Below, piece by piece: positions 28,069 through 49,880 of a stretch of 64,000 nt of DNA. The first letter of the stretch is position 1. Every line of letters begins with the position of its first letter. Source of the stretch: Myxococcales bacterium. Its GTDB lineage: Bacteria > Myxococcota_A > Polyangia > Fen-1088. Location: assembly GCA_022184915.1 (NCBI GenBank), contig JAGTJU010000001.1:868057-932056 (forward strand), read 5' to 3'. The notes under the pieces were generated by a model. It saw only the letters and a list, made by a program, of their open reading frames with translations, was not told where the DNA came from and did no database searches. Both the position numbers and the translations under genes were made by a program.

Positions 28069-28096
28069 GGCCAGGCTCGGATGATCTTCAGAAGTG

Positions 28097-33615: not shown

Positions 33616-33770
33616 GAGAGGTCTCCCGGTTGGTGCCGAAGGCACGGGATGAACGCGATACGAGCCTTTCATACATCCCGGAACGCAGGGTCTTCGTGAC
33701 GATTCCGTGGCAGCTCGCGCAGGCGCGCGCAGAGGGCTGCCGATCTCCGGAGCAGCTCTTCGATAATCGG

Positions 33771-34691: not shown

Positions 34692-34718
34692 GTGGAGGAC
34701 CTGGCCAAAGTTCGTTGG

Positions 34719-35909
34719 CTAGTGACCCTGGGAAACCGAGCCCGCGCCCAAATCCTGAAGGGCTGCGTGGGCCTTCCGTGACAACGCCGAGGCGGCGTCG
34801 CCCTCGGCGAAACGTGTGGCGAGGGCCAAGGTCTCCTTGTCCGGAAACTGTTCCGCCAGGATTCCAAGGGCTTGCACCCGCTCGCCCTCCCGCGCGTTGG
34901 CATCCTTGACCACTGCCAAGGCGAGCTTCTTGAGGCGCGAACATTGGGCTCGGGTCGGGTCGCCATACGCATTGCGGGCGTCGGCGCCACAGAGGCTCTG
35001 GTATACGTCGAGTCCTGCCGCCAGGGGCTTTCCCGCCGCAAGCCGCGCCTCGTCGCTGGCCAAAACGTTTTCGAGGTAGGGGCTTCCACACGAGGCCAAA
35101 AAGGCGTGGGCCCGCGTGACGATGACGGCCCGCGTGTCCTTCGTGAGGTCCTTCATCCAGTCGCATACCTGCTTGTTTTCTTCGAGGGTGCGCCCGCCCA
35201 GGGCGCGGGGCGCTTCCACGGCAGCCACAGACACCTCGAGCGAGTCACTCCGGGCAACGTCCCAGAGCTTCTCGAAGACCCTCAACCGGGCCGTGGTCAT
35301 GATGTTGCGGTAAACCGCGGAGGCCAGTTTCTGCTTTCCAGGCTGGTCGATGAGCGGGTAAAGCTCGCCCTCGAGACCCACGGAGCCCACGACATGGGTG
35401 AGCACGGGTGCCACGTCGAGCGCCTGGGCCTCGGGAAGCGCTGCAAACTGCGCCATGAGCTTGCGCGTGATCTCCTTGTTCGGCACCGTGCCTGCGTTCT
35501 TGGCGTAGGCGCGCGCCAAAAGCTCGGCGGCGGCCGTTTTCATCTTGTCATCGCCGGTTTCGAGGACGAACGAGACCGTCTGCAGAACGCCGTGGCGCGG
35601 CTTGAGCCCCCGTGCACAGATCTTGACGATGTTCTCGAAGTAGTCGGAGTTGCACGACAAGGCCGAACGGGCCACATCGACGTTGCACCGGCGGGCCATG
35701 TTCCAAAAACCCTTGTAGACGTCCTTGTCTACGAAGGTGGGCAGCTTGGCCAGGGTCTCTTCGAGCTCCACCGCGGGATCGGCGGGCTTGACCTGAACGG
35801 GTGCCTGGGGCACCGCGGGTTTCCGCTTGCAACCGGGAAAACACGCTCCCACGAACGCAAAGAGCCAGAGCGAGCGGAGAACATTCTTCGAGGTGAGGGT
35901 TCTTTTCAT
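34719..35909 (-). CDS. Helical-repeat (HEAT/ARM-like) lipoprotein, hypothetical
   Basis: Lipobox LFAFVGAC. Alpha-helical repeat composition. Start trimmed to MKRTLTSKN; the ORF-track start is at 36131. Confidence 0.45.
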   Translation of the reverse strand: MKRTLTSKNVLRSLWLFAFVGACFPGCKRKPAVPQAPVQVKPADPAVELEETLAKLPTFVDKDVYKGFWNMARRCNVDVARSALSCNSDYFENIVKICARGLKPRHGVLQTVSFVLETGDDKMKTAAAELLARAYAKNAGTVPNKEITRKLMAQFAALPEAQALDVAPVLTHVVGSVGLEGELYPLIDQPGKQKLASAVYRNIMTTARLRVFEKLWDVARSDSLEVSVAAVEAPRALGGRTLEENKQVCDWMKDLTKDTRAVIVTRAHAFLASCGSPYLENVLASDEARLAAGKPLAAGLDVYQSLCGADARNAYGDPTRAQCSRLKKLALAVVKDANAREGERVQALGILAEQFPDKETLALATRFAEGDAASALSRKAHAALQDLGAGSVSQGH

Positions 35910-36076
35910 GGCGTCACCAGACATTGGGGCACCGGCGGCATGTTCCCGCCTGAGCGCTCCGCTCGTTTGCCATTCCGTCGGTTCGCAAGCCAGACCAGAA
36001 GAGCCCGTACGGCGAACTTTTCCCGCGCCGTAACCAAACCGATGATTGACTTTCACCGAGCCGCCACATTTTGAGC

Positions 36077-36114
36077 CCGGCGTGCCAAAAAAGAAAAGGG
36101 GCCCGCGGCCTAAG
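36077..36114 (-). terminator. Terminator-like hairpin with T-rich tail after Cys-rich lipoprotein paralog B
   Basis: On the minus strand, GGGGCCC...GGGCCCC stem followed by TTTTCTTTTTT. Confidence 0.55.
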
Positions 36115-36149
36115 CCGGGGCCCCTCGTCAAGCTTCTCTCTTTAGTAGC

Positions 36150-37682
36150 TTAGAAGCACTGGGCGTTGCAGCTGATGAAAGCCGAGTCCCAGATGACCGT
36201 CGCGTTGCCCATCGAGTAGTTGAAGTCGAAGTAGCGCGCGAGCACGTCTGCGTTCGCAGGGTTTTCGCCGGCGCCGGCCTTCATGATGGCCGCGCAGTCA
36301 CCCTGCGGAACGAAGCTGGGGTTTTCACAAGCGTCGATGTCCGCTTGGCTATTGCCACAGTAGCACGCTGCAGGAGCGATCTCGGTCCAGCAGGTGGGGT
36401 TGGCCTTGAGGCAGGACAGAACGTCCGCACAAGCCTGGTCGGGCGTACACACGCCGGCCAGGAACTCGCCGATCTCGGGAAGAGTCGAAAGGCAAGGCGT
36501 GCAGAGGTCCTCTGCGACGCGCTTACAAGCCACGCAGGTTGCGGAGGTCTCGTCGCACTCCTCACCGGCCTCGACCACACCGTTGCCACACGCCACGACG
36601 ATCTTGCAGTCGGCGCCGCAGGTTTGGCCAGGCACGATGCCGTCGGTGCCGTCGCACTCTTCAGAGGGCTGATTCTTGGCGCCGTCGCCGCAGACGGGGT
36701 TGTTGATGAGCGACTTGCAGTCCGAAGCGCAAGCCTGATTGGCGCCCACGCCCACCGTGCCGTCACACACTTCTTGCAGACCGGCCTGGATGATGCCGTC
36801 GCCACAGCTTTCGACCACGCAGCTCGCCGAGCAGCCGTCCTCGCTGGTGAGGTTGCCGTCGTCACAAGCCTCGGCGCCTTCCTTGGCACCGTCGCCACAC
36901 TGGCTGGCCTGAACGCACTGTACCCACACCTCTTCGGTGTCGAAGCAGTCGTCGTCCTCGAACTTCAGGCTGACGAACACGCCCGCCGAAGGCAGACCCG
37001 TGCGGGTGTCGACCACGGGGCTCGCGCCAAGGCCGGTGCAGGTGAAGGCCTGGCAGGCCGACGAGCCGGCTGCGCAGGTGGCCGTGGCCAAAGTGCCCAC
37101 GCCCGTGTTGGTCGCGTCATTGCGCACCGACCAAGAGAAGGCGGGGGTTCCCACGACCGCGCCGGCGTGCACCTCGGCCTCGACCGTGGTGCTCTCGCCC
37201 GTGAGGACGTTGGCGGGGATGGCGTAGACCTTCTTGATACGGTCAGCGCTGCAAGCACGCTTGTCGAACGTGGGGATGACCACGGCGGCGCCGTCATCGC
37301 TCATGTTCACAGCCTGGCAGAGCAAGGTGACCTCCACCTCGACGGTCTGTCCGGCCACAACGGTGAAGGCCTTCGAGCCGGTGCAGTCCGTGCCGTCAGA
37401 GGCCTGCGTGGCCAGGCTCACGGTGCAGTCGCCGGGGGTGAGACCACCGAACGAAGCCGTTACCGATCCCTTGACCACATTCAGCACGTGGCTCTGGGTC
37501 ACGTTGCTGGCGGGGCACGAGATCTGGAGGTTGATGGTGTCGACCGTCTGCTCGTCGGGCAGGGTCAGGTCGAAGTTGACGGACCCGGTGGTGGGCGAGT
37601 TGGCGCCCTCGGGGCCGCCGCTACAAGCGGCCAGCGTAAGGCCGGCGACAAGCGCGCCGACGGTTCCGAAGTTCTTGAACAT
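36150..37682 (-). CDS. Cys-rich-repeat lipoprotein, paralog B
   Basis: Same architecture and length (510 aa) as 32083..33615. Lipobox LTLAAC. GGAG RBS. About 80% nt identity over the 3' 250 nt by eye. Confidence 0.7.
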   Translation of the reverse strand: MFKNFGTVGALVAGLTLAACSGGPEGANSPTTGSVNFDLTLPDEQTVDTINLQISCPASNVTQSHVLNVVKGSVTASFGGLTPGDCTVSLATQASDGTDCTGSKAFTVVAGQTVEVEVTLLCQAVNMSDDGAAVVIPTFDKRACSADRIKKVYAIPANVLTGESTTVEAEVHAGAVVGTPAFSWSVRNDATNTGVGTLATATCAAGSSACQAFTCTGLGASPVVDTRTGLPSAGVFVSLKFEDDDCFDTEEVWVQCVQASQCGDGAKEGAEACDDGNLTSEDGCSASCVVESCGDGIIQAGLQEVCDGTVGVGANQACASDCKSLINNPVCGDGAKNQPSEECDGTDGIVPGQTCGADCKIVVACGNGVVEAGEECDETSATCVACKRVAEDLCTPCLSTLPEIGEFLAGVCTPDQACADVLSCLKANPTCWTEIAPAACYCGNSQADIDACENPSFVPQGDCAAIMKAGAGENPANADVLARYFDFNYSMGNATVIWDSAFISCNAQCF

Positions 37683-38097
37683 GGTTTGCTCCTGGTTGTC
37701 TTTGTGGTTGAACACGATGATCTGTCGCGCGGCATGAACCTGGCGACGTGGTCTGAATCGAGTCCCTCGTATACCCCGCAAGGGCGGAGGCCCGGTGTGA
37801 CGATCCGGTCGCAAGTCTTCGACGGAACACGTCCGCTTCTCCTGGAATCGGTGAGGTCACCGATTCAAAGTGTTCGATTATCGGAGATATCGTCATGGCG
37901 GGCGTGGCCCGTGCGTCCAAGGCTTGGTCGCGCGACAGATGCGGTCGATGCGTGGTCTTTTGGTCGCGGTTCGTTTTCTGAATCGTAACCCCTCGCGGGG
38001 AATGCCCGGGCTATACGACTCCTGCCTCGAAAGGGTATTCCGCCAACTTCGAACCGCTTGGTCGCTGCACATGAGCGATCATCCAGGAGGAACGACA

Positions 38098-40074
38098 ATG
38101 AATCGCACCATGAGACTCGTAGCGGGTTCCGTGTTCGTGCTGGGCATGACGAGCCCGGCATTCGCACAGAATCCCAACTTCATCGACACCACCCGCGCCA
38201 CGCCCAACGCCATCTCGGGCTCCGACACGCTCAACAAGGTGATGGACGACCTGCTCCTTCAGCTTCCGCTTTCGGGCGGCATCAACACCTACTTCGGCTG
38301 CGGTTCGTCCTGCGGCGAGCGTCAACTTGCCGGCTCGCCCAGCTCCGGCGATGGTGCCAACAATGGTTGTACACCCTCTGACGGCAACGGTGCTCCCGAA
38401 GCCAACCCTGGCTGCCAGGAGATCTCGGGCATGTCCCGCCCGCTTCAAAGCGGCATCTGCGATGACGACCCCAACTTCCCCGGCAGCACGAACGATCAGG
38501 CCGAGGGCCTTGCGTTCTGCGCCGACGGCCTCGTGATCCTCGGCAACAACGATTCCATCGGCGCCTACGGCACCGACGCAGCATCGTGCGCCGCCTACTT
38601 CGCGTCGTCCACCACGCCGAACACGGGTAACCAGTTCCCGGATCGTGGAGTGGGCGCTCTCCGCAACAGCGGTACCCTGGCCAGCGGGTATCAGATCGCG
38701 GACTGGAAAGACGTGATTCGGCTCGTATACACGGGCTGTACCAACGCCGACGGCACCTGCGCGAACACCACCAACCGCGTGACCCGCTGTGGGAGCGCCG
38801 TGCGCCGCGAAGTCGTCGAGAACTGGGGAAATCTTTTCCAGGGCGTGGCTTGCTCGCAGAGCGGCGGCTGCCCTTCGGGCCTCGTGCGCGCGTTCCGTCG
38901 CGACGATGCCTCTGGTACGACCGGCGTGTTCCTCGAGCTCATCGGCGTGGCGTTCAACGTGTCCACCAACATCACCTCACGCGCAGACGTGGTTTCGGGC
39001 ATTCCCCGCGCCATCACGCCCATGCCTGCGAACCTCTCGTTCTGCGACGGTGGCGACATCGAAGGTGTGATCCCAACGAACTTCGGCCCGAGTGGTGAAG
39101 CCGCCTTCGATCTGGGCGACCCGATCCGCACGGCGTGCCTTGCCGAGGACGACATCTGCGCCCGCGACGGCCGGCTCGGTCTCGTCCGCGCCATCCGCTC
39201 CACCGACACGGCCACCGTGGCCCAGGCCTATCCGGACTATCAATGCAAGCGCCTCTTCGCCTACCAGCAGTACATCAACGCGGCCTTGAACATTTGCCCC
39301 GACGGCACGAAGACCTCGGCGGGTCGCTGCCGCTTCCCCTACTACGAGGACGGCGCCTTCCGTACCTTCAACTGCATCGCGAACCAACGCTCTGCGTCTC
39401 CGGCCGCTCCGGCGGGCACCGACGGCCGTTCGTACAACTTCGTGGTCCACGCAGACGACGGCACCGTCTCCTTTGCCGACTTGAACCGCCGTCTGCCCGT
39501 CACCGCCTACTGGCGTCACAACATGGCCGTGCTGAACAACAGCGCGCTCGCCAACGGCAAGGTCCTCACGGCCGCCGACGTGGTCTGCCAGGAGAGCGAC
39601 GCCACGCGGAACATCGGTTGCCTCACGGCCAACTCGAAGTGCACCCTGGGCTACGCAGGCCGCGAAGCGGCGTTCAACAACTCGCAGCCCACGGTTCACC
39701 TGTCAAACGAGCCCGTCAAGCTGAATGGCTTTCCACCCTCGGGTGAGGCCGTTTCGGCCGGCAGCTACCCGTTCTCGCGCCTCCTCTTCATGAACGCCTC
39801 GCGCGGCTTCGAGAACATCATGGAGGATTGCAAGAACCGGGGCGGCACGAAGGCCTACTGCGAGGACCAGGTCCGCATCGCGCAGGAGTTCTTCACGGTG
39901 GGGCAGCCGGGCAACGTGCTCGGCGACATCTGCAGCAACGCGGGCTTCATTCCGCTGCCTGCCGCGCTGTGCGTGGGTGCTCAGGGCAGCGCTGGCTGTG
40001 GCGCTCCTTCGAGCCAGCCCCTCTCGGCATGCGCGATCGACGCCCGTTCGTATGACTCGCTCGTGAACAACTAA
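38098..40074 (+). CDS. PstS-like (PBP superfamily) secreted binding protein with large Cys-rich insertions
   Basis: AGGAGG RBS 8 nt upstream. Signal peptide ending AFAQ. GS.CG and SYPFSRLLFMN motifs resemble the PstS family's YP.SRPLY. At 659 aa it is about twice the usual length, with many paired Cys. Confidence 0.5.
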   Translation: MNRTMRLVAGSVFVLGMTSPAFAQNPNFIDTTRATPNAISGSDTLNKVMDDLLLQLPLSGGINTYFGCGSSCGERQLAGSPSSGDGANNGCTPSDGNGAPEANPGCQEISGMSRPLQSGICDDDPNFPGSTNDQAEGLAFCADGLVILGNNDSIGAYGTDAASCAAYFASSTTPNTGNQFPDRGVGALRNSGTLASGYQIADWKDVIRLVYTGCTNADGTCANTTNRVTRCGSAVRREVVENWGNLFQGVACSQSGGCPSGLVRAFRRDDASGTTGVFLELIGVAFNVSTNITSRADVVSGIPRAITPMPANLSFCDGGDIEGVIPTNFGPSGEAAFDLGDPIRTACLAEDDICARDGRLGLVRAIRSTDTATVAQAYPDYQCKRLFAYQQYINAALNICPDGTKTSAGRCRFPYYEDGAFRTFNCIANQRSASPAAPAGTDGRSYNFVVHADDGTVSFADLNRRLPVTAYWRHNMAVLNNSALANGKVLTAADVVCQESDATRNIGCLTANSKCTLGYAGREAAFNNSQPTVHLSNEPVKLNGFPPSGEAVSAGSYPFSRLLFMNASRGFENIMEDCKNRGGTKAYCEDQVRIAQEFFTVGQPGNVLGDICSNAGFIPLPAALCVGAQGSAGCGAPSSQPLSACAIDARSYDSLVNN

Positions 40075-40127
40075 GCCCTTGGGGCTTTACTGAGGGGCGC
40101 CTGTCCAGGGCGCTCCGGGACGGAAAA

Positions 40128-40160
40128 GGGCAGGTCACCTCGTGGGGCCTGCCCTTTTTT
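40128..40160 (+). terminator. Rho-independent terminator after the PstS-like gene
   Basis: GGGCAGG-loop-CCTGCCC followed by TTTTTT. Confidence 0.75.
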
Positions 40161-40248
40161 GTATCCGGATCCTCGTGGCAAGGGTTGTCACCGTAAGTTG
40201 ACACGACTGTTCGCTTCCGCCCGCCACGGCCCGTGTATAAGACGGTAG

Positions 40249-41385
40249 ATGCGACTCCCTCGGCATCGTTCAGCACAGACCCGTGCGCGGGGCGTCCTGG
40301 TTGCCTTGATGACGGCCTGGTCCCTTGCGTCCTGCGGAGACGACGTGCTGGCCCCCGAAGGCCCGAGCAACCCGGACCTGGTGCGTGAGGCGCGTGCCCT
40401 GGTGAGGGTCCAAGAGGTTCCCGAGGGGGTGCGCTGCCTGCGCGTCACGGTGGCGGGGGTGTTTACGATGCAGTTTTCCTTGGACGTCGAGGCGGGCAAG
40501 GTCACGTCTCTCTCCGCGGGGGGCCTGCCCACCGGCATTGTTCATTTTCAGGCGGAAGCCTTCGAGTCGGCCTGCGCTTCGGTGACGACCTCGGACATCG
40601 CTGAGTGGCGCAGCGCCCCGCAGACACAGACTTTGGTTGCGGGCACCACGGCTGTTTTGACGCTCGTGCTCCGCCGAAACGGGGTGGCGGAGGTAGGATT
40701 TGGCTTCGAGTTCGCAAAGCCCTGTGCGCCAGGCGCAAACGCCTGCAGCAGCGACGAGCTTTGTTTCGTGCTGGCCTGCGGGGACGCCTCCGGCGGATGC
40801 CTGAAGAGGCCGCTCACCTGTTCGCAACAATACGACCCCGTCTGCGGCTGTGATGGCGTGACCTATGCCAACGCGTGCGAAGCCGCCGCGGCAGATCGTT
40901 CGGTGGCCCACGCAGGCGCCTGCAGCTGCGGAGGCCCAAATGCTGTCACCTGCGCGGCAGGTTATGCGTGTACGTATCCGGACGGCGTCTGCGCCAGTCC
41001 TGGCCAAACGGGTGTATGTACGGCGGCGCCGGTGGCGTGCCCCAGTGTGTCCGAGCCCGTGTGTGGCTGCGACGGAAGAACGTATGCGAACCGCTGTCTG
41101 GCGGCAGCGGCTGGGGCATCGGTTCTCGCGGAAGGCGCTTGCGCGCCGATCCCCTGCGGAGGTCCGGTGAACGCAGGCTGTCCGGCCTCCATGTTCTGCT
41201 CGTTTGCGGACGGAACGTGCGCGGACCCGGTGCGCGTCGGTGTTTGCGTGGAGCGCCCTCGTCTTTGCCCCACGATACAGTACGCCCCCGTGTGCGCATG
41301 CAACGGCAAACAGTACACGAACGTCTGCCTCGCCAATGCGGTGGGCGCCTCCGTGGCCAACCGCGGCCCCTGCGTGTCCCCGTAG
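40249..41385 (+). CDS. Lipoprotein with three Kazal-type serine-protease-inhibitor domains
   Basis: Lipobox SLASC. Three PVCGCDG.TYAN.C repeats (Kazal signature). Confidence 0.7.
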   Translation: MRLPRHRSAQTRARGVLVALMTAWSLASCGDDVLAPEGPSNPDLVREARALVRVQEVPEGVRCLRVTVAGVFTMQFSLDVEAGKVTSLSAGGLPTGIVHFQAEAFESACASVTTSDIAEWRSAPQTQTLVAGTTAVLTLVLRRNGVAEVGFGFEFAKPCAPGANACSSDELCFVLACGDASGGCLKRPLTCSQQYDPVCGCDGVTYANACEAAAADRSVAHAGACSCGGPNAVTCAAGYACTYPDGVCASPGQTGVCTAAPVACPSVSEPVCGCDGRTYANRCLAAAAGASVLAEGACAPIPCGGPVNAGCPASMFCSFADGTCADPVRVGVCVERPRLCPTIQYAPVCACNGKQYTNVCLANAVGASVANRGPCVSP

Positions 41386-41397
41386 CAAGGCGCGGTC

Positions 41398-41952
41398 ATG
41401 TCGACGAGAAGCGGTCCCATGAACGCGCGCACGAGAATCAACCTGGCTCTACTCGTCGGTGCTTTGTGCGTGTCCTGCGGCGATGGGCTTTGGTCGCCCG
41501 ACGCGGGTGCAGACGCGGCCCTCGTGGCGAGCGATGGCCCTCGCTTCGATTTCGAGACAGGCCCCCTTCCCGCCTGCGAAACGCCGCGCGTGAAGATCGT
41601 CGCTGCGTACCCTGGCGAAATCGCCGTGGGACAGTCCGCTCGGATCGAGGCGGCTTTGCTGACCTTCCCAGATGCTGATGGCGGTACGCCACAGCTCTCC
41701 TGGTGGCTTCAGCGTGCGGGCGCCGCTTCACCCACGGCGACTCTCGAGGTCCGCGGAGCTTGTGGTGCGGGTGCCGCCGCGTGTGCCACGGTCACGTGTA
41801 CCGATGCGCCTTCGGCTTTCGAGGCGGGCGACGCCGCGCTCAGCGATACGGAGATACAGGTCATGGTGCGCTACGACGACGGCTCGTGCTTCGATGCCAG
41901 TCGTATCTTCGTGCCGTGTCGGCCCGTCTCCCAGCGAGATGCGGGCTCCTGA
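41398..41952 (+). CDS. Lipoprotein, hypothetical
   Basis: Lipobox ALCVSC. Cys-rich. 13 nt after the Kazal gene. Confidence 0.4.
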   Translation: MSTRSGPMNARTRINLALLVGALCVSCGDGLWSPDAGADAALVASDGPRFDFETGPLPACETPRVKIVAAYPGEIAVGQSARIEAALLTFPDADGGTPQLSWWLQRAGAASPTATLEVRGACGAGAAACATVTCTDAPSAFEAGDAALSDTEIQVMVRYDDGSCFDASRIFVPCRPVSQRDAGS

Positions 41953-42029
41953 AGGCTGTGCGTGTCGCCGTCCGTACGTCATCAAGTCGTCACTTGCCAC
42001 GGCCAGGCGCAGTAGGATAGGCACTGGGC

Positions 42030-42674
42030 GTGATTCGGCACGAACGCCCCTGCAAACCTGCAATCGCCAGCTGCAAGCGGATCGCTCTTGCCATGGCGTG
42101 CTGGGTTTGTTTCGTGCCCGGCTGCAATGACGTGGATGAGCGTCCCGCGGAGTGGGCCTTCATCGCGCCCGTCATCATTGCGCCCAACTGCGCCACGGCC
42201 AGCTGTCACTCTGCGCAGGCCGCAGCCGCAGGGCTTGATCTCTCGGAGCCTGGGAAGGCCTACGAGAGCTTGCTCGCGCAGGAGGCGCAGTACCTCGACC
42301 CTGGGGCCGTGGGCGTGGCGCCTGCCGTCTGCAGGGCAGAGCGGGGTGGGATCTTGTGTCCGACGACGAGACCCCTCGTGGCGCCCTGTCGCCCTGACGA
42401 GTCGAGGTTGGTGAACACCCTTTTCGCACGCGGCACGCAGCAGATGCCGCCGGATCGGCCGCTCCCCCTCGCGGATATCGAGCTCATCGAGCGCTGGATC
42501 CTGGCGGGTGCCAAGCGAAGTCCGCAGGACCTCCTCCCCCGTTGCGGAGAACCGTTGGCACCGGGCGCCGATGCGGGCGCACCGGATGCCGCCGCTCCTG
42601 CCGCGAACCTGGACGCAGCGTCAGCGTCTGATGCGGACGTTGGCGGAGCCAACGACGGCGGAGGTGTGGGATGA
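42030..42674 (+). CDS. PSCyt1-like domain lipoprotein (CX4CH variant)
   Basis: GTG start. Lipobox FVPGC. APVIIAPNCATASCHS...GLDLS...MPPDRPLPLADIELIERWILAGA follows the PSCyt1 pattern, but with C-x4-CH spacing. Confidence 0.5.
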   Translation: MIRHERPCKPAIASCKRIALAMACWVCFVPGCNDVDERPAEWAFIAPVIIAPNCATASCHSAQAAAAGLDLSEPGKAYESLLAQEAQYLDPGAVGVAPAVCRAERGGILCPTTRPLVAPCRPDESRLVNTLFARGTQQMPPDRPLPLADIELIERWILAGAKRSPQDLLPRCGEPLAPGADAGAPDAAAPAANLDAASASDADVGGANDGGGVG

Positions 42675-43846
42675 AACGTGGGGGCAAGACCTCGTTCCTT
42701 GGTTTCCTTGCTCTCCTTGGGCTGGGGCTTGTCGTCATGCTGCTCGCGCCCCGCGCCGCGCAGGCTTATCCCCAGTGGCAGTTCTCTGCGGGAGCCACAC
42801 GCTGCAATCAGTGCCACTACGCCCCCACGGGCGGTGGCCTCATCAACGGCTATGGTCGCGATGCGATCGGTGAGGAGCTCTCGACGTGGCAGGGCGACGG
42901 GGCGTTTCTTCACGGCGCCGCGGACCTTCCTCGTGTCTTGAAGTTGGGGCTCGACCTGCGTTTCGCGATGTTATCGAACGACAACGGCGGCCCCGATCAA
43001 CCAAAGAACGCCTTCTTTCCCATGCAGCTCGACGCACACGTGCGCCTCGAGGCGGGAGCGTTCGCATTTCAGGGCATCGTGGGGGGACGTGCCCAGGTGC
43101 GAAGCGCCGACGCCCCGGTGCCGCAAAGCAACTTCCAGCCCGAGAGCGGCAGCCGCCTCGTCTCGCGTGAGCACTGGGCGATCTGGCAGCCTGCCGCGCG
43201 TGGCATGTACGTGCGGGCTGGGCGCTTTTTTGCCCCCTTTGGCCTTCGGCTCGCCGAACACCTCGTGTACGTGCGCCGCGACCTCGGCTTCAACATCCTG
43301 GAAGAAACGTACAACGTCTCTGCGGGTTTCCTCGACAACGGCTGGGAAGCGCATCTGACGCTCTTTGCCCCGGACTTCCTTCAAAACGGAAGCCAAGAGA
43401 CCGGGGTGGCCGCCTACGCCGAAAGACGGGTGCTGAACGAACTCGCCAGCGTCGCCGTCCAGGGCCGCTTTGCCAGCCGTGAGGGCGCCCAGCGGGGCAT
43501 CGGAGGCGTGGTGCTCAAGGGCTACATCGAGCCCGCACGTCTTCTCGTCATGGGCGAGGGCAATTACATCCAGAACATGCCGGAGGGGGTCGACGCCGTG
43601 GGGCAGTTTGCCGGGCTGCTGGGCGCCTCGTGGCTGCCCCCGCTGCGCGGCTTCCTGGTGACGTTGTGGGGCGAACGGCTGCAGACCGACCTCGCCACGC
43701 AGAACACGGCGTTGAATGCGCTCACGGGCCTCGTGTCGTGGTTTCCCTATCCCCACTTCGAGCTTCAGCTGGTGGCGCGCCACCAAGCCGCCGACGGTGC
43801 CCGCGCGATGACCACGCTGCTCGCGCAGCTCCACTACTTCCTGTGA
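42671..43846 (+). CDS. Secreted protein with N-terminal CxxCH motif and beta-rich (possible outer-membrane barrel) body
   Basis: ATGA overlap with the upstream gene. Signal peptide ...AAQA. CNQCH at mature residue about 15. Alternating hydrophobic pattern and an aromatic C-terminus (HYFL). Confidence 0.5.
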   Translation: MKRGGKTSFLGFLALLGLGLVVMLLAPRAAQAYPQWQFSAGATRCNQCHYAPTGGGLINGYGRDAIGEELSTWQGDGAFLHGAADLPRVLKLGLDLRFAMLSNDNGGPDQPKNAFFPMQLDAHVRLEAGAFAFQGIVGGRAQVRSADAPVPQSNFQPESGSRLVSREHWAIWQPAARGMYVRAGRFFAPFGLRLAEHLVYVRRDLGFNILEETYNVSAGFLDNGWEAHLTLFAPDFLQNGSQETGVAAYAERRVLNELASVAVQGRFASREGAQRGIGGVVLKGYIEPARLLVMGEGNYIQNMPEGVDAVGQFAGLLGASWLPPLRGFLVTLWGERLQTDLATQNTALNALTGLVSWFPYPHFELQLVARHQAADGARAMTTLLAQLHYFL

Positions 43847-43850
43847 GGCC

Positions 43851-44570
43851 ATGGTGAAGGTTTTATCGTGGTTGCCAATCGTTGCTTTCGCCGTGGGGGG
43901 CGCTTGTTCACCGCCTGACGCGGCCACAGACCCCACGTGGGCCGATGTGTATCCGATCCTTCAGGGGCAGTGCCTGCACTGTCACGGCTCGACGGCCGCC
44001 AAGGACGGTGGCAACTATCGCTTCGACCTGCTCGACGCCTCGAGCGTCTGCAAACAAGAGGAGGCTGACGACCTCGTTGCGGGGCTCTCACCTCCGTCAT
44101 CGTTCTATGCGGCGCGGCGGCTCATCCTCGCCGACATCACGCCCTATGCCGCGGGATTCCGTCCGAAGATGCCGCCCGAGCCGGGGCGCGCGCTCGAGGG
44201 GTGGCAAGCAGAGACGCTCGAGAGGTTCGTGGCGAAGCTCGATGCGTTGCCCTTCACCGAGGCGATGACGGCAGGTCTGGGCCCTCTTCCGGCAGACGCG
44301 CGATCGCCAACCATTTCCGCAAGCTACGCCCGCAACGGGAACACCCTGGTCGTCGACTACGTGGTCGAAGACGAAAACGCCGATGCGGTGGTGGGTCAGC
44401 TTCGGGTGGGTCAGGGCCTGCGGTCCCCGATCGAGGGATCGGGGCGGGGCCAGGCGCGCTTCGACCTCGGCGGAACCACGGGACCCTGGCCCATCGATGC
44501 CCGGCTCTGCGATGGATGGGATGTTCGTACACGCGGCGCCCCCGACGGCTTGCCCACGGTGCCACCCTGA
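43851..44570 (+). CDS. PSCyt1-like domain lipoprotein (canonical CxxCH)
   Basis: Starts 5 nt after the upstream stop. Lipobox AVGGAC. WADVYPILQGQCLHCHGS...YRFDLL...KMPPEPGRAL.GW matches the PSCyt1 consensus. Confidence 0.55.
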   Translation: MVKVLSWLPIVAFAVGGACSPPDAATDPTWADVYPILQGQCLHCHGSTAAKDGGNYRFDLLDASSVCKQEEADDLVAGLSPPSSFYAARRLILADITPYAAGFRPKMPPEPGRALEGWQAETLERFVAKLDALPFTEAMTAGLGPLPADARSPTISASYARNGNTLVVDYVVEDENADAVVGQLRVGQGLRSPIEGSGRGQARFDLGGTTGPWPIDARLCDGWDVRTRGAPDGLPTVPP

Positions 44571-44716
44571 CCTGCACCCTCTCGAAACCGGAGGCTACGG
44601 TCGCTCGCGACACGCCCTGGCTCTGAAACGTCACACGCGTCGCAAAAGGGCGTTGGTATAAGACCGCCGTCCAGAACGGTGCCCATCGGGGGCGCCTGCC
44701 AGGAAGGGTTTCGACC

Positions 44717-45634
44717 ATGACCAGCTTACACGGTGGCTTGACCGTGAGTCCATCGGGATTGGCACGTGTGCACGCCTCGTCACGCGTAATGCTCGACGTC
44801 GTCGAGCAGGTGAGGCGTCTCGCTCGTAGCCAGGTCAACGTACTGTTCCTGGGTGAGACCGGCACGGGCAAAGCCCTCTTGGCGCGCGCGCTGCATGAGG
44901 AAAGTCACCGCGCCCACGCGCCTTTCGTGCGCGTCGACTGTCGAGACGTGCACGCCGACGCGCGGGACCTCTTCGACGACGACGCACCGGGCGCCCCGGC
45001 GCGCGCGGGGGGCGGAACGCTCTTTTTGGACGAGGTCGCTGAGCTTCCGGGCCCGCTTCAACAGAGCCTCTTGCGCTGGCTGGACGGGCGAAGCTCGTTC
45101 GGCGACATGCCTGTAGGGGCGGGGGAGGTCCGCGTCGTTTCCGCGAGCTGCCGCGCGATCGAAGCGGTCGCTTCGTCTGCCGCCTTTCGGCAGGATCTCT
45201 ATTTTCGTCTCGCCGTGGCCCTGGTTCACGTGCCTCCCCTGCGCGATCGCGTGGAAGATCTGCCGCGGCTCGCGAATGATCTGCTCGCCGAGTTGGGGCG
45301 CCCCGAGCTCTTGCTGAGCCCGGAGACTCTCGTGTTGCTGAGTGCGCACCTTTGGCCTGGGAACGTCAGGGAACTGAAGAACGCCTTGGCAGCGGCCCTC
45401 GCCTTGGCGGACGGGGGCACCCTCGAGCCCAGGCACTTCAGATCGCTTGGCCACGAAGGCGCGCCCTCGGTGCTCGAGCGCCTCCCGCTGGGAGGCCAGA
45501 GATTGGAACATCTCGAACGCGCGGCCATCAAGCAAACGCTCACGCAGACCCGGGGGAACAAAGTGCAGGCAGCGCGTACGCTGGGGATCGCGCCCTCGAC
45601 GCTCTACGAGAAGCTCAAGCGCTACGGCCTCTGA
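44717..45634 (+). CDS. Sigma-54-dependent transcriptional activator (bacterial enhancer-binding protein), AAA+ plus Fis-type HTH, no N-terminal sensor domain
   Basis: Walker A GETGTGK. GAFTGA-region equivalent. ESELFGH-like, arginine finger. C-terminal HTH (RGNKVQAARTLGIAPSTLYEKLKRYGL). Confidence 0.75.
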   Translation: MTSLHGGLTVSPSGLARVHASSRVMLDVVEQVRRLARSQVNVLFLGETGTGKALLARALHEESHRAHAPFVRVDCRDVHADARDLFDDDAPGAPARAGGGTLFLDEVAELPGPLQQSLLRWLDGRSSFGDMPVGAGEVRVVSASCRAIEAVASSAAFRQDLYFRLAVALVHVPPLRDRVEDLPRLANDLLAELGRPELLLSPETLVLLSAHLWPGNVRELKNALAAALALADGGTLEPRHFRSLGHEGAPSVLERLPLGGQRLEHLERAAIKQTLTQTRGNKVQAARTLGIAPSTLYEKLKRYGL

Positions 45635-45640: not shown

Positions 45641-46960
45641 TCACGCAAAGCCCCCTCGTCCCTGAAACGAAAACGCCCCCGGCACAGGCTTCGTGGCCAT
45701 CTGCGGAAGAAAGCCCTCGAGCTTCTCGAGCACGCGCAGCTGGCGTCCCGCGTGCTGATCGGCCCTCAGGTGTACGCCAAGACCGTAGCGTACGAAGAGC
45801 TCATCGATGAGCAGCGCACGCATCTGCCCGCGCAGGTGTTGCGAGTAAAGGGCCGACAAACTCTCCTCGGGGCTTGCGATCTTACCCATGCGGTAGCGCG
45901 TGGCGGGGGCAAGCACCAAGCGGGCGCGCGCGAGCGCTTCGGTCCAGGGGGCCTCGTCCTGAGACAGCCGCCACAGCGGGTCGGCGTCGCTCGGCGCGCG
46001 CTCTCGTGACGCTTCGTCTGCGTTCGGGGGCTCAATCACGTGCTCGACCGGACCAATGCCACTCATGAGGTGCAGCGCCTGTGCGGCAGCGGGCGCGAGG
46101 CCCTCGATGGTCAAGGCCCGCAGCAACGTGGGCACGAGGGCGCCATCTCCCAGCAGGCCCGCCGCGAAGGTGGCGAAGGCGTCGCCGGTCTCGATGTGTT
46201 TGGCGAGGAGGGATGCGGCGCGGGGACCTCCGAGGAACGCCAACACCACGGGCGCCCATGCTTGGTTCAGCGCTTGCGCCAGCAGCCAGTGCGCCAGCTG
46301 CGGGTCTTCTGTCCGGCACAAGGCCAGTGCCGCGGCGCGGGCCACCGGGGCTTCGCTTGCCCCCAGCGCTTCGATGAGGGCATCGCGCGCGGGCGCCTCA
46401 CCGATTTGCCCCAAAGCCCAGAGCCACGTGGCAGGGGTCGGCACGCCCTGGCGAAGGCCCGCCAACAAGGCCGGCCCCACGTCCCAGCGTTGGTAACCGG
46501 CGGCATAGGCCAACGCCTCGGCCTCCGGCGCCGCGCCTCCGGCAACGAGCGTCGCCTGCACGTCGCCGAGGTCACCTCCCCAGGGCTCGTGGGCCAGGGC
46601 CGTTCTCAGCGCTTCGGCAGGGGAGGGCTCCCGCGCCGCCAGGCGGTTGGGATCCACGTTCAGCGCCAGCGCCTCGTTCGCCGTGACCCTCAAGGCCGCC
46701 ATGTTCCCCGCATGCGCGAGCGTTCGCGTGGCCGCGTACACGGCTCCTCCGCCGTCGAGCGGGACCGCACGACAGAAGTCTGCTGCGTCTTTGCCGCCGA
46801 AAAACAGCAGATCCAGATGGGCGTCGAGACGGTCATCGAGGGATCGCACCTGAGACAGGCCGAGCTCGGGAGGATCCAGGTCCTGGCAGCGCCGCACGAA
46901 GAGCGTGCCCGCCTCCTCTAGGCTCTCCTCGAACAGCTCTTGGTTGAAGCGAATGGCCAT
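45641..46960 (-). CDS. TIGR02270-like hypothetical protein (paralog of 47531..48847)
   Basis: Its N-terminal E-E-S-x-x-E-A-x-x-L pattern and helical-repeat composition resemble the downstream TIGR02270-like protein. The family is described as being of unknown function and T6SS/VgrG-associated in Proteobacteria. Confidence 0.4.
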   Translation of the reverse strand: MAIRFNQELFEESLEEAGTLFVRRCQDLDPPELGLSQVRSLDDRLDAHLDLLFFGGKDAADFCRAVPLDGGGAVYAATRTLAHAGNMAALRVTANEALALNVDPNRLAAREPSPAEALRTALAHEPWGGDLGDVQATLVAGGAAPEAEALAYAAGYQRWDVGPALLAGLRQGVPTPATWLWALGQIGEAPARDALIEALGASEAPVARAAALALCRTEDPQLAHWLLAQALNQAWAPVVLAFLGGPRAASLLAKHIETGDAFATFAAGLLGDGALVPTLLRALTIEGLAPAAAQALHLMSGIGPVEHVIEPPNADEASRERAPSDADPLWRLSQDEAPWTEALARARLVLAPATRYRMGKIASPEESLSALYSQHLRGQMRALLIDELFVRYGLGVHLRADQHAGRQLRVLEKLEGFLPQMATKPVPGAFSFQGRGGFA

Positions 46961-47073: not shown

Positions 47074-47529
47074 ATGTCACCGCTGGCCCTGGGGCAGGCG
47101 CGGACGGCGGCGCTGGTGGCGGCGAACGAGGACGAGGCGGGGCGGGTCTGGGCCTGGGTGGATGTGGGGCAGGGCCCCGAGCGGGCCGCGCTGCAGGTGC
47201 CGCTGTCGGCCGCGCGCCTCGAGCGCATCGCCGCCGAGCAACGCCCCGTCATCGTGTTCAGGGCCCCGGGAGGTCTCGAGGTGGTGGCCGTGGTGGGCCT
47301 GGCGTTGGCGCCGCCGCTGGCGCCGCTGGCGCCCGCGGGTGCGCCCATCGAGGCCGACGTCGACGGACAGCGACTGCGTCTTCATGCCGAGCGCGAGATC
47401 GTGCTTTCTTGCGGCAAAGCCTCGATCACCTTGCGCGCCAATGGCCGTGTGATCATTCAAGGCACGCAGATCGAGTCCTACGCCGAAGGCACGAACCGGA
47501 TCAAGGGTGGGCAAGTTCGCATCAACTGA
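47074..47529 (+). CDS. Small hypothetical protein with VgrG/gp5 C-terminal-like beta-helix repeats
   Basis: AGGAG RBS. The C-terminus (GKASITLRANGRVIIQGTQIESYAEGTNRIKGGQVRIN) resembles VgrG tail repeats. The ORF track extends it to a TTG at 46996. Confidence 0.4.
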   Translation: MSPLALGQARTAALVAANEDEAGRVWAWVDVGQGPERAALQVPLSAARLERIAAEQRPVIVFRAPGGLEVVAVVGLALAPPLAPLAPAGAPIEADVDGQRLRLHAEREIVLSCGKASITLRANGRVIIQGTQIESYAEGTNRIKGGQVRIN

Positions 47530-47530
47530 C

Positions 47531-48847
47531 ATGCCCATGCGCTCACGGCTCCCTGTTTTGTGGCCCCTCGTCGAAGAGAGCTTCGACGAGGCCGAGTTTT
47601 TGTGGCGTTCCTGGGAGGAGAGCCTCGACACCCACGCGCGCCACCTCGGCCAGGTCTGGTTTTGGACCGACGACCGCCTGCAGGGGGCCCTCGAAGGTGT
47701 GCGGCTCGGCGGGCGCCGGGCGCTCGACGAACTCTTGTTGCCCGCGCTGGCACGCCCCGAATCCCCTTTTCGGGTGCGGGCCACGGTGCACGTGCTGGCT
47801 TCCCACGCGACACCGGCGTGGGGCGCCCTGGGGGAAAGTCTGCGGGGGACAGCGTCCCTCGGCTTCGACATCGAGCGCGGCCTGCAAACGCTCACCGAGC
47901 CGCGCCAGGTGAGCGCGCTCGAAGCGTGGCTCGCGCATCAGGGTGAGGCCTCGCGGGCTCTCCGGGTGTCCTTGCGTGTGTTTCGCAAGCAAGCTTCACC
48001 GCCCGACGAGGTGAGCGCGCTTGCCGTGTCCCACGTGCCGGCGCACCGGCGGGTGGCCATGGCGGCAGCCCAGCACCTTCCGCCGGGGCTGGCCAAGCCG
48101 CTCCTGGTTCGCGGCCTCGACGACATCGAGGGCGAGGTGGCCAACGCCGCGGTCGGCGCGGGGCTCGTGCACGGCTTGCCTGCGGCGTGGGCACGCTGCT
48201 GCGAACGGGCCGCGGCACAATCATCGGCGCTCTTCGTGTTCCTGGCGGCCTGCCTCGGGGGGCCCCGCGAACGGCGTCTCGTCGAAGCCTCGCTGGGGCT
48301 TGCGCGCACACGGCCCTTTGCCCTTTCGGCCCTGGGGTTTTTGGGCACACGCAGGGCGGCCGATCTGGCCCTCGAGCTGATGAACGAAGACGCGCAGGCG
48401 CGCCTGGCGGCCGAGGCCTTTTGTGCCATCACGGGGCTCGACCTGGCCGCAGAAAACGCCGCCTTGCCGGAGCCTTTGCCGCCCGCGGGGCCCGTGCCTT
48501 TCGAGCTCGACGATCTGGATGCAGACCTCGTGCCCAAACCGGATGACCTGCTTCCCGCCCCCGACGTGGCGCGGGTTTCTGCGTGGTGGGCGGCCCACCG
48601 CAACCGCTTCGATGAGCACACCCGCTACATCGGAGGGCGGCCCCTGTCGCCCACCGCCTTGTGGGACGCGCTCGCGCGGGGGCCCATGCGTCGCCGGCAC
48701 GTGCTGGCCTTCGAGCTGGCCGTCCGCACCGCAGGGGCTTGTGACCTTCAGACCCGCGCCTTCACTTCGTTCCAGCGCCAGCAGCTCCGGCAGTTCACCG
48801 CAGAGCTCGCTGACATACCCTTTGCGATGAACGCCTTCGCCTCCTGA
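47531..48847 (+). CDS. TIGR02270-like hypothetical protein
   Basis: ATG 2 nt after the upstream TGA. N-terminal LVEESFDEAEFLWRSWEESL. HEAT-like repeats. Confidence 0.45.
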   Translation: MPMRSRLPVLWPLVEESFDEAEFLWRSWEESLDTHARHLGQVWFWTDDRLQGALEGVRLGGRRALDELLLPALARPESPFRVRATVHVLASHATPAWGALGESLRGTASLGFDIERGLQTLTEPRQVSALEAWLAHQGEASRALRVSLRVFRKQASPPDEVSALAVSHVPAHRRVAMAAAQHLPPGLAKPLLVRGLDDIEGEVANAAVGAGLVHGLPAAWARCCERAAAQSSALFVFLAACLGGPRERRLVEASLGLARTRPFALSALGFLGTRRAADLALELMNEDAQARLAAEAFCAITGLDLAAENAALPEPLPPAGPVPFELDDLDADLVPKPDDLLPAPDVARVSAWWAAHRNRFDEHTRYIGGRPLSPTALWDALARGPMRRRHVLAFELAVRTAGACDLQTRAFTSFQRQQLRQFTAELADIPFAMNAFAS

Positions 48848-48857: not shown

Positions 48858-49880
48858 ATGTTGCAGCTCGAAAACGCGTCCGGCCTGCCGGCTTCCCTGG
48901 CCGTGTTTCCCGATCCCCACGGCATCGATACTCTCTACACCGTCGTCAAAGCTACGTTCGCCTTGCGACCGCGGCTGGCCTTGGCCGATGAGCAGCTGCC
49001 CGTGTCGGCGGTCGACGCGTGGCGGGGCGAGCCCGGCAAGAGCAGCCTCACCGAGGTCAGCGAATTTCACCTCGGCAAACCGGGCACCGACGTGCTCCTC
49101 ACCGGGCACGCCGTGGCCCCGCAGGGCCGGCCCGCCCCGCAGAGCGCCGTGCGCCTGGTGGTTGCCAATCGGCAGAAAACGGCGGCCATTTTTGGCAAGC
49201 GCGTGTGGCGGCGCGGGGGCACGCTCTGCCCGCCCGAGCCCTTCGAGAAGGTCCCGCTCGTGTGGGAACACGCTTACGGTGGTTGCCACGAGGTGACGCC
49301 CGGTGGGGCCCTGCTGGGCGAAGACGCCAATCCCCTGGGGGTGGGCTTCGTGGGCCGCCGCTCCGCCGAGAGCTTCATCAGCACACCGGCCCCGCAGATC
49401 GAAGATCCTGCGGCCCTCATGCAAACACTCGGGGACAGGCCCCCCCCTGTGGGCTTTGGGCCGATGCCCGCCGCCTGGGCCGCGCGTCGGCGCTTTGCTG
49501 GCACCTACGATGCGGCCTGGCAGCGCACGCGGGCGCCCTACCTGCCCGCCGATTTCGATCCTCGCTTTTTTCACGTGGCCCCCGCGCCCTTCGCCTTCGC
49601 GCACCCGCTGCAAGGCGGTGAACCGGTCTCTGTCATTGGCGTGTCTTACGACGGACCCTATGCCTTTGCGGTGCCACGTCTCGTGGTGGGGGTCCACGTC
49701 GTGCTGGCGCGCCGGCAGCAGATCGTGCAAGCGATGCTCGAGACCCTGTGGATCCACGCCGACACGGCCCGCGTGAGCTTGTCCTACCGGGCCGCGCTCG
49801 CGTGCGACAAAGAGGTCCTCGCGGTGAAGAAGGTGCGAATCGAGGTGGCTGGCCTCGAGGAAGTAGGGCTGGCCGCGTGA
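48858..49880 (+). CDS. DUF2169-family protein (T6SS effector adaptor/chaperone family)
   Basis: N-terminal MLQLENASGLPASLAVFPDPHGIDTLYTVVKATFAL matches the DUF2169 N-terminal signature. 340 aa is typical. Confidence 0.65.
   Translation: MLQLENASGLPASLAVFPDPHGIDTLYTVVKATFALRPRLALADEQLPVSAVDAWRGEPGKSSLTEVSEFHLGKPGTDVLLTGHAVAPQGRPAPQSAVRLVVANRQKTAAIFGKRVWRRGGTLCPPEPFEKVPLVWEHAYGGCHEVTPGGALLGEDANPLGVGFVGRRSAESFISTPAPQIEDPAALMQTLGDRPPPVGFGPMPAAWAARRRFAGTYDAAWQRTRAPYLPADFDPRFFHVAPAPFAFAHPLQGGEPVSVIGVSYDGPYAFAVPRLVVGVHVVLARRQQIVQAMLETLWIHADTARVSLSYRAALACDKEVLAVKKVRIEVAGLEEVGLAA

Follow-up and report, generated by a model that had tools for sequence, protein, structure and literature searches.

The region analyzed here lies within a 64,000-nt stretch of contig JAGTJU010000001.1 from a Myxococcales bacterium (positions 868,057 to 932,056 of the contig), which is termed the window in the following. 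It contains a compact cassette of three plus-strand genes, designated A (42030..42674), B (42671..43846), and C (43851..44570), whose products may together form a redox conduit at the outer membrane. Gene A begins with a GTG codon and encodes a predicted 214-aa lipoprotein with its lipobox cysteine at position 32 and one class-I-like cytochrome c domain. Gene B encodes 391 aa, with a predicted signal peptide (residues 1-32), a putative heme module (about 33-89), and a predicted β-barrel (about 90-390) that ends in HYFL; the protein is 100% identical to the hypothetical protein KA712_03730 of a Myxococcales metagenome-assembled genome (MAG). Gene C encodes a predicted 239-aa lipoprotein (lipobox cysteine at position 19) with an N-terminal cytochrome c domain and a conserved C-terminal domain. 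An earlier sequence-only reading of this DNA had described three coupled genes at 42030-44570, and all three open reading frames (ORFs) are indeed present on the plus strand. The ATGA in which the TGA stop of A and the ATG of B overlap is also there, whereas the gap between B and C, given as 5 nt in that reading, is actually 4 nt long ('ggcc'). The view that all three proteins are secreted and carry heme-type motifs, with A and C being lipoproteins, agrees with the signals and motifs that we could read in the translations.

As a proper lipoprotein signal of A (KRIALAMACWVCFVPG followed by C32) needs the GTG at 42030, we consider this codon to be the start of the gene; the internal ATG at 42093 is located just 10 residues ahead of the lipobox cysteine. 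The third-position GC content of A, B, and C is 0.76-0.80, as analyzed by codon position, which is in line with real genes. No intrinsic terminator was found between A, B, C, and the regulator gene that follows C. The earlier view that the three genes are transcribed together and coupled in translation looks right.

B is the central protein of the cassette. Its signal peptide (MKRGGKTSFLGFLALLGLGLVVMLLAPRAAQA followed by YPQ) has a hydrophobic core and an A-x-A site with predicted cleavage between AQA and Y, and these features are conserved in the family alignment. The only heme-binding-type motif of B is the CNQCH at residues 45-49 (within RCNQCH, 42803..42817). Searches of Pfam and NCBIfam with B assigned no family, and matches to TIGR01904 (E 0.011) and to the LbtU siderophore porin family (E 0.014; 14.9 bits against a cut-off of 90) were dismissed as noise. 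A sequence search of the PDB with the B profile gave no match even at E ≤ 10. There are, on the other side, more than 556 homologues at 90% clustering, all of them annotated as 'hypothetical' and about 385 aa in length. The close family has an invariant N-terminal signature, AYPQWQ[FL]S.G..RC.QCH..P.GGGL..YGRD, together with a C-terminal HYFL and many invariant polar residues; C45, C48, and H49 are invariant in 117 sequences. Exactly one CxxCH is present in all 120 of 120 close homologues and in 88 of 91 full-length representatives of the superfamily, and in 87 of these 91 it lies inside the first 90 residues. The heme-site context CxxCH-xx-P-x-GGG (CH-x-x-P-x-G-G-G-L) is kept in 200 of the 211 full-length B-family proteins that we examined, and 201 of them have the MQx[DE] motif in strand 2.

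The AlphaFold2 model of B, which was generated with the alignment of 117 sequences, had a mean predicted local distance difference test score (pLDDT) of 84.6 and a predicted template modelling score (pTM) of 0.80. In this model, the N-terminus forms a small helical module (residues 44-82), and the remainder is made up of 16 β-strands (90-390). When this model was compared with the PDB using Foldseek, solely outer-membrane porins with 16-18 strands were found, namely VhChiP (E 8.7e-12), OprB, Omp32, PorB, and OprO (4rjw, E 5e-8). The sequence-only reading had suspected a β-barrel at 42671..43846 and had suggested a barrel prediction, and the 16-strand model with porins as the best fold matches supports this suspicion. 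The longest conserved stretch of B, FAPFGLRLAEH..Y.RRDLGF, lies between strands 5 and 6 of the DSSP strand map (residues about 187-212, 43229..43306), with P189, G191, R193, E196, H197, R203, D204, L205, and G206 being invariant. As this stretch holds the position of the constriction loop L3 of classical porins, L3 of B probably folds into the pore. According to the model, B would thus be a Sec-exported outer-membrane barrel that has one heme-type motif on its periplasmic N-terminus. Met118 of B, the superfamily-conserved methionine of the MQxD motif, was considered as distal heme ligand and not adopted, as strand alternation may point its side chain to the lipid. Other candidates for this ligand are H168, H197, H362, and H388.

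The B superfamily is large. An exhaustive HMMER search over 1.84 billion cluster representatives gave 1,959 clusters (50% identity) at E ≤ 1e-3, 1,139 at 1e-10, and 235 at 1e-30. Distant members keep FPE..RHGY..C..CH.SP.GGG.L..YGR, MQxD, FPRPHxE, and HYYL. Such distant members (L128:6001-7176, corresponding to P0407, and P0345-P0412) are found on contigs of lower GC content (56% in L128) with no A or C nearby, and one distant member has a faint precomputed match to Porin_O_P, the porin family that Cyc2 resembles. One 688-aa protein, P0339, looked like a B-C fusion. It has retained the signal peptide and lipobox of C, and we therefore attribute it to a probable missed stop codon or frameshift in the metagenome assembly. 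The taxonomic spread was followed with the best 80 B loci among the GTDB species-representative genomes, and all 80 are in uncultured Myxococcota/Polyangia MAGs. These were obtained from soil, fen, permafrost, sediment, and activated sludge, and two to four B copies per MAG are common.

The closest functional precedent that we found for B is Cyc2. The Cyc2 family has been defined by a signal peptide, a single CXXCH, a 16-strand porin of the OprO/OprP type, and a length of at least 365 aa, with the motifs AXPXFAR[Q/K][T/Y] upstream of the CXXCH and PXL downstream of it, and OprO is the reported structural homologue of its porin (PMC8406198). Cyt572 shares this build (PMC10654088). B likewise has a predicted Sec signal peptide, a single CXXCH near the mature N-terminus (residues 45-49), and a predicted 16-strand OprO/OprP-like barrel, and its 391 aa lie within the length range. 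The FAR[QK][TY] motif, searched as P.F[AS][RA][QK][TY], was found in 0 of the 211 full-length B-family proteins, with B having AYPQWQFS instead, and a PXL at the Cyc2 spacing of about 4 residues after the heme site was also found in 0 of the 211. As none of these proteins carries the defining motif of Cyc2, we regard B as a separate family, and it falls outside the Cyc2 family as currently defined.

For a direct comparison, we collected Cyc2-like references by a tblastn search of plasmids with a consensus peptide, which gave seven genes bearing the published motif (from Methylocystis, Caballeronia, Ralstonia, Ideonella, Acidithiobacillus, Polymorphobacter, and Paraburkholderia). With hhalign, the close B family aligned to the seven Cyc2-like proteins with 84% probability and an E-value of 7.4e-6 over 48 columns, which comprise the end of the signal peptide and the heme module. 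With 88 diverse B representatives, the probability rose to 95.1% (E 3e-8), and the confident columns covered the heme module only; a reversed-sequence control gave 1%. The aligned core reads A-x-P-x-[FW]-...-G-..-C-x-x-C-H-...-P-...-L-x-x-Y-G-R. From these comparisons, B is probably a remote sister of Cyc2, and it would work like Cyc2. The operon logic is also alike, as the plasmid-borne Cyc2-like genes are followed by genes of small c-type cytochromes (Cyc1/c4-like). The partners themselves are unrelated, however: hidden Markov models (HMMs) of A and C did not detect the Cyc1-like cytochromes that adjoin the plasmid Cyc2 genes, and neither did they detect the first domain of the accessory protein E that is described below, so that we consider both as analogous and not detectably homologous to A and C. 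Further differences concern the hosts, which are Acidithiobacillus, Zetaproteobacteria, Gallionellaceae, and Chlorobi in the case of Cyc2 and Polyangia in the case of B, and the length, with a median of 384 aa for B versus about 440-510 for Cyc2. In addition, the barrel of B is strongly conserved (MQxD, FAPFGLRLAEH..RRDLGF in L3, FPYPHxE, HYFL), whereas the Cyc2 porin is poorly conserved. The sequence-only reading had put the stress on the PSCyt1-like proteins of the cassette; its suspicion of a barrel role for B stood, while the identity of B as a fused cytochrome-porin of the Cyc2 type had been missed.

The two lipoproteins are related to each other. A has more than 258 homologues, with C-A-T-x-S-C-H, M-P-P-D-R-P-L, and D-I..[IL]-E-x-W-I..G-A as invariants of the family alignments. 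Its putative variant site for covalent heme binding is the C-x4-CH in NCATASCH (CATASCH, 42189..42209), and this spacing is invariant across 117 homologues. The MPP at 42444..42452 (M118 and P119 invariant) includes the candidate distal heme ligand. In C, the heme-binding-type motif is the CLHCH in QCLHCHG (43971..43985), which is invariant in the C family, and the MPPEPG (44169..44177) can be read directly from the sequence. The C family has the invariants P-T-W..D-V.P-I..G.C..C-H-G and M-P-P.P...L..W, with C19, C41, C44, H45, M107-P109, C67, and C220-D-G-W as invariant residues, and its C-terminal domain is marked by D..GDPV.G and LCDGW; the two further invariant cysteines possibly form a disulfide. 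By hhalign, the cytochrome domains of A and C are homologous (95.5%, E 1.6e-8), and the CATASCH of A aligns to the C--HCH of C as a 2-residue insertion. The predicted lipoboxes are VCFVPG/C32 in A, with the cysteine conserved in at least 90% of the homologues, and AVGGA/C19 in C, with an invariant cysteine. In Myxococcus, the lack of a lysine at position +2 of a lipoprotein suggests sorting to the outer membrane. Neither A nor C has a lysine at this position, which suggests that both are anchored in the outer membrane.

An HMM search showed in how far A and C belong to the PSCyt1 family (PF07635), as the sequence-only reading had claimed. A scored 17.1-17.5 bits, below the gathering threshold of 22, and 18 of 27 A homologues matched at E ≤ 0.01 (best 1.9e-5), so that 'PSCyt1-like' is a fair description of A, while membership at the family cut-off did not hold. 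C, which had been called a canonical member, scored 13.4 bits, with 0 of 25 homologues at E ≤ 0.01, and this designation had to be dropped. What A and C have in common with PSCyt1 is the pattern of heme motif, GL.L, S.L, MPP, and L..WI..GA. They differ from PSCyt1 in that A uses C-x4-CH (C has CLHCH), in that a fusion to DUF1549/DUF1553 is absent, and in that the genes form an operon with a porin gene. No other Pfam domain was found in A or C either, in agreement with the earlier description of both as small stand-alone lipoproteins.

The sole significant PDB match of the A profile was FoxE (5mab), with an E-value of 1.8e-3 for a profile of 27 sequences and of 2.8e-4 for one of 117. The alignment spans the heme-site context (..C..CH...GL.LS) and the segment R-M-P(P)...[IL]..WI..GA, which bears the distal methionine in FoxE. 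Cytochrome c552 (2d0s) also aligns with A, over VPMPP...DIE.I.RW. FoxE ligates both of its hemes through His and Met (PMC10654088), and as the FoxE hemes are ligated in this way, the invariant methionine of the MPP motif may be taken as the distal ligand in A as well. FoxE of Rhodobacter ferrooxidans SW2 differs from A in being a soluble periplasmic diheme protein with CxxCH sites, whereas A is a predicted monoheme lipoprotein with C-x4-CH. The best PDB match of C was PccH of Geobacter (4rlr), which was not significant (E 0.11). The AlphaFold2 model of A had a pLDDT of 82.3, and a Foldseek search of the PDB with this apo model gave no match at E < 1 and small cytochromes c at E 5-9, with the limitation that models of apo-cytochromes are poor search objects. 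On the basis of their motifs, A and C look like His/Met class-I cytochromes.

To see which genes accompany B, we scanned 85 non-redundant Polyangia loci with HMMs for A, B, and C. The order ABC or ABCC was found in 46 loci, BAC in 3, ACB in 1, a divergent arrangement (C'A'/B or B C'A') in 4, and a partial arrangement, often at contig ends, in 9; the remaining 22 loci contained only B within ±6 kb. In six homologous loci for which genes were called, there was a small A-like gene, B, and a C-like gene of about 230 aa in otherwise unrelated surroundings, with overlaps or gaps of at most 16 nt in nearly all of them. Spacing as tight as in the window was seen in five other gene-called loci. Given the numbers of homologues and the recurrent linkage, the A-B-C arrangement is far beyond chance. 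A linkage that is kept although the genes change their order and strand speaks for a functional unit in which B is the constant member, and B is the conserved core of the system, being present even where A and C are absent. In a divergent sub-branch with B proteins of about 42% identity (L061-L086, e.g. L061:3737-5527 and L063:1-3159), 16 loci have one or two genes for membrane glycosyltransferases of the PMT_2 type (ArnT/protein-mannosyltransferase-like) immediately ahead of A in the same orientation, a hint that the envelope or a component is glycosylated.

Two further proteins recur beside B. One of them, D, is a membrane protein of about 490 aa that resembles tetratricopeptide repeat (TPR) proteins, with homologues in 14-22 of the 85 loci; in the loci with B only, the order is D-B-EBP, with EBP denoting a gene for an enhancer-binding protein (EBP)-like regulator. 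The other, E, is a large lipoprotein (about 1,200-1,300 aa) that bears four CxxCH motifs and has homologues in 13-19 of the 85 loci, and its first domain shows a CxxCH...MPP...L..W pattern. In the window, E is encoded at 28097..32050 on the minus strand as a 1317-aa lipoprotein with four heme motifs and an SO2930-family diheme domain (TIGR03806 at 8.7e-22), and it is 34% identical over 1270 aa to E proteins that lie beside B elsewhere (tblastn, E 5.5e-170). A D-like protein is encoded at 24058..25170 (minus strand), with a tblastn match to D proteins (E 2.5e-24) and a faint match to TPR_2. The two genes belong to a tight minus-strand row together with a DUF4215 protein (25195..28113) and an unknown 577-aa protein (22246..23979). 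As E and D homologues recur beside B in other genomes, this row is probably a second part of the A-B-C system, 10-18 kb away from the cassette.

The E proteins also bear on the question of whether the variant motif of A is a heme site at all. The first heme motif of the window E is CGQAGCH, thus also of the C-x4-CH type, and orthologues have CGGCH at this place. This is a second, independent change from CxxCH to Cx4CH in the same genome, which suggests that the maturation system of the host accepts the longer spacing. We also considered that the system could contain no heme, with B being a specialised solute porin, A and C accessory lipoproteins, and the motifs binding a metal or forming disulfides. 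The hemes are indeed putative and C-x4-CH is non-canonical, B has the weak match to the LbtU siderophore porin (E 0.014), and its Foldseek matches are ordinary diffusion porins. This view is nevertheless very improbable, as an invariant C..CH followed by an invariant M-P-P is a hallmark of class-I cytochromes c and the heme-site and MPP region of A aligns to real cytochromes (FoxE and c552 2d0s). In addition, the Cx4CH of A aligns with the CxxCH of C, the module of B aligns with the heme site of Cyc2, and the alternation of CGGCH and CGQAGCH among the E orthologues would be expected if both bind heme.

We favor the view that A, B, and C form an outer-membrane redox conduit, to which we assign a probability of roughly 55%. 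From the gene coupling, the conservation, the motifs, the barrel fold, the remote similarity to Cyc2 and FoxE, and the conserved neighbours, we infer the following scheme for heme attachment, topology, protein contacts, electron direction, and substrate. B would be exported by the Sec system, receive one c-type heme on the N-terminal CNQCH module, and form a 16-strand porin in the outer membrane; its heme module would be placed at or inside the periplasmic mouth of a narrow pore. A and C would be lipid-anchored monoheme His/Met cytochromes on the periplasmic side, with the heme of A attached via C-x4-CH, and they could relay electrons between the heme of B and carriers of the periplasm or the inner membrane. 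Where the order is D-B-EBP, this role would probably fall to the lipoprotein E with its four heme motifs. A small soluble reductant, e.g. Fe2+, may enter the pore and be oxidised at the B heme, and the electrons would then flow inward through A and C towards a terminal oxidase. Since one heme is not enough to span the membrane and Fe(II) is the substrate oxidised by both Cyc2 and FoxE, a small soluble substrate such as Fe2+ and an inward flow would be most likely.

Several points weigh against this conduit. The hemes are putative in all members of the families. The similarity between B and Cyc2 is limited to the roughly 48 confident columns, and the FAR motif is absent from the entire B family set. 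The barrel of B is far more conserved than that of Cyc2 and rich in invariant His, Arg, Glu, and Asp, and these invariant polar residues could point to a different chemistry. The model of A has no solved fold at E < 1, and the sequence matches to FoxE and PccH are weak. In about one quarter of the loci, neither A nor C lies within 6 kb of B, so that A and C are not obligatory partners. Neither cytochrome-maturation nor terminal-oxidase genes were found in the window. Finally, the hosts are presumed to be aerobic heterotrophs or predators and, to our knowledge, are not known as iron oxidisers.

As a monoheme porin is in principle neutral with respect to direction, the same hardware could also pass electrons outward, to an extracellular or pore-bound acceptor such as Fe(III) chelates, Mn(IV), or humic quinones. 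A version of this idea would be reductive iron assimilation, with Fe(III) being reduced in the pore and Fe2+ imported. Judged by the sources of the MAGs, the hosts are heterotrophs of soil and wetland, and PccH, the best PDB match of C, acts in electron exchange with electrodes. Just past its E-D row, the window encodes a TonB-dependent receptor (18806..22183, plus strand) whose N-terminus has a CarboxypepD_reg domain, and genes for TonB-dependent receptors are also found near B in L004 and L005. However, Fe(II) oxidation is the activity of the two characterised relatives (Cyc2 and FoxE), the PccH match did not reach significance, the TonB-dependent receptor of the window has no homologue in the other 85 loci, and consistently linked Fur-box or iron-uptake genes were not found. 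We therefore rate outward flow as rather unlikely and continue to prefer the inward-directed conduit.

The gene that follows C on the same strand (44717..45634) encodes an EBP-like AAA+ regulator, with matches to Sigma54_activat (111.6 bits), AAA_lid_14 (54 bits), and HTH_8 (54 bits). Neither Pfam nor NCBIfam revealed a receiver or a sensor domain at its N-terminus, in agreement with the sequence-only reading, which had placed a sensor-less EBP immediately downstream. Homologues with about 50% identity adjoin B in about 20 of the 85 loci, where the gene follows B, stands divergently to A, or separates C'A' from B, and as they recur in this manner, the pairing with B is not accidental. In its build, the window EBP is similar to regulators of the PspF type, as it consists only of the AAA+ domain for sigma-54 interaction and the C-terminal Fis-type helix-turn-helix (HTH), and this lack of a regulatory domain implies control in trans. 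It differs from the PspF type by the loss of the GAFTGA loop, and neither a sigma-54 promoter nor a PspA-like partner has been identified.

The loss of this loop became apparent in an alignment of the window EBP with 12 neighbour EBPs and PspF. Ten of the 12 neighbour EBPs have an exact GAFTGA (ELFGHE[RK]GAFTGA), and one has GSFTGA. In the window EBP, the corresponding region (residues 84-97, 44966..45007) is degenerate, with DLFDDDAPGAPARA in place of the ELFGHERGAFTGAHAEHPGAFERA of the homologues. It reads DLFDDDA and, after the alignment gap, PGAPARA, which means that about 10-12 residues are deleted, among them the GAFTGA loop contacting sigma-54. The EBP of L024, the closest relative of the window EBP, is also degenerate by a deletion, which suggests that the regulator was rewired or has decayed in a lineage-specific manner.

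We also considered that the adjacent EBP activates a sigma-54 promoter that drives A, B, and C, and the sequence-only reading had expected such a dependence. The conservation of the EBP as a neighbour of B in several orientations speaks for this idea, as does the GAFTGA or GSFTGA loop in nearly all of the aligned neighbour EBPs. As the GAFTGA loop is deleted in this genome and no -24/-12 promoter was detected upstream of A (no GG-N10-GC site with a score of at least 8/12 in 41300..42150), canonical sigma-54 control is doubtful here. In the 20 EBP-bearing loci, there was also no consistent high-scoring -24/-12 site upstream of the cassette, and the element shared by D and EBP genes, which is described in the following, has TT at the position of the invariant GG. 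For the window, we thus regard activation of the cassette by this EBP as unlikely.

The shared element is bipartite and promoter-like, typically AATCGTCACAT-N19-GTATAAG, and 27 copies of it are spread over the 1.87 Mb of B loci. All of them immediately precede a D gene, an EBP gene, or (in L002) an A gene. In the window it is found at 44629..44662 (plus strand) upstream of the EBP gene as AACGTCACACG-N19-GTATAAG, and the other loci with copies are L002, L018, L020, L022, L025, L028, L029, L032, L034, L036, L041, L043, L046-L048, L050, L051, and L058. In the copies upstream of D, the ATG follows 8-12 nt after TATAAG, which would result in nearly leaderless mRNAs, and these copies carry an extra TGTTTTCAC half, with TTTCAC-N5-TTGCA in the sigma-54 register and TT replacing the invariant GG. 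Expression of A/B/C, D, E, and EBP may thus occur in a small regulon that is marked by this element.

The regulatory neighbours also raise the question of whether the module is protective or sensory, by detoxifying peroxide or reactive species at the pore, or by reporting the redox state of the envelope to D and EBP. The conserved link to a sensor-less EBP and to the TPR membrane protein D would suit such a role, as a PspF-like EBP needs a trans-acting regulator; E holds a diheme domain of unknown function, and the lumen of the barrel has many invariant His, Arg, Glu, and Asp residues. On the other hand, A, B, and C have no similarity to the diheme peroxidases CCP/MauG, three cytochromes in tight stoichiometric coupling look like an electron relay, and several paralogues per genome suit a metabolic use better than signalling. 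We therefore consider a protective or sensory function improbable and an electron-transferring conduit the better description of the cassette.

The other genes that flank the cassette (Kazal, DUF4215, M10, and TIGR02270/DUF2169) were considered as parts of the system and rejected, as they have no counterparts in the other loci. On one side, a cluster of secreted proteins at 32083..41385 includes three Cys-rich DUF4215 proteins and an unknown 658-aa protein, as well as an M10 metallopeptidase (33771..34691, minus strand) and a lipoprotein with three Kazal inhibitor domains (40345..41385), and such clusters are typical of myxobacterial genomes. The coding status of a 184-aa ORF at 41398..41952 is doubtful, and it was not called in the Logan assembly. 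On the other side, there are two HEAT-like proteins of the TIGR02270 family (minus strand, 45641..46960; plus strand, 47507..48847), followed by a DUF2169 protein (48858..49880). The TIGR02270 and DUF2169 families usually accompany VgrG/PAAR effectors of type VI secretion systems.

In a broader comparison, the cassette resembles MtrCAB, PioAB/MtoAB, and the OmbB-OmaB-OmcB Pcc system of Geobacter, which also combine a barrel, a cytochrome of the periplasmic side, and a lipoprotein cytochrome. These systems have barrels of 20-26 strands that sheathe membrane-spanning cytochromes with 8-10 hemes, whereas A-B-C has a 16-strand barrel carrying its own single heme motif and partners with one motif each. 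A fused cytochrome-porin with adjacent periplasmic cytochromes is an already known kind of system. In the literature on Cyc2 with Myxococcota and on PSCyt1, we found no description of the B family or of the cassette. What appears to be undescribed are the B family with its signature, its strongly conserved barrel, and its abundance in multiple copies in Polyangia, the dedicated FoxE/PSCyt1-like lipoprotein partners, one of them with an invariant C-x4-CH, and the link of B to the sensor-less EBP, D, and E. We tentatively suggest, at somewhat less than even odds, that next to Cyc2 there is a second large family of fused cytochrome-porins, represented by B, which has escaped recognition so far; it would be remotely related to Cyc2 as a sister and have its own FoxE/PSCyt1-like partners.

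Published Cyc2 datasets explicitly drop sequences without the FAR motif (PMC8406198). As screens based on the Cyc2 motif exclude the B family, current marker-gene surveys would miss a route that runs through B. The B family is abundant in Myxococcota of soil, peat, and permafrost, often with several copies per genome. Cyc2 is the main genetic marker for mapping neutrophilic iron oxidation in the environment, and if there is another cytochrome-porin family of comparable size, estimates of which organisms can exchange electrons with dissolved iron or other redox-active solutes would change.

If the proteins bind no heme, the finding shrinks to a conserved porin-lipoprotein cassette. The cassette of three genes with one heme motif each would otherwise be a tractable model for the hand-off of electrons by a single-heme porin and for the maturation of C-x4-CH sites. 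If the B family is active, the uncultured Polyangia of soil and wetland and other bacteria with the stand-alone form would gain an outer-membrane route for Fe(II) oxidation or another kind of extracellular electron exchange, which would be an unexpected redox capability of the envelope for predatory or heterotrophic Polyangia.

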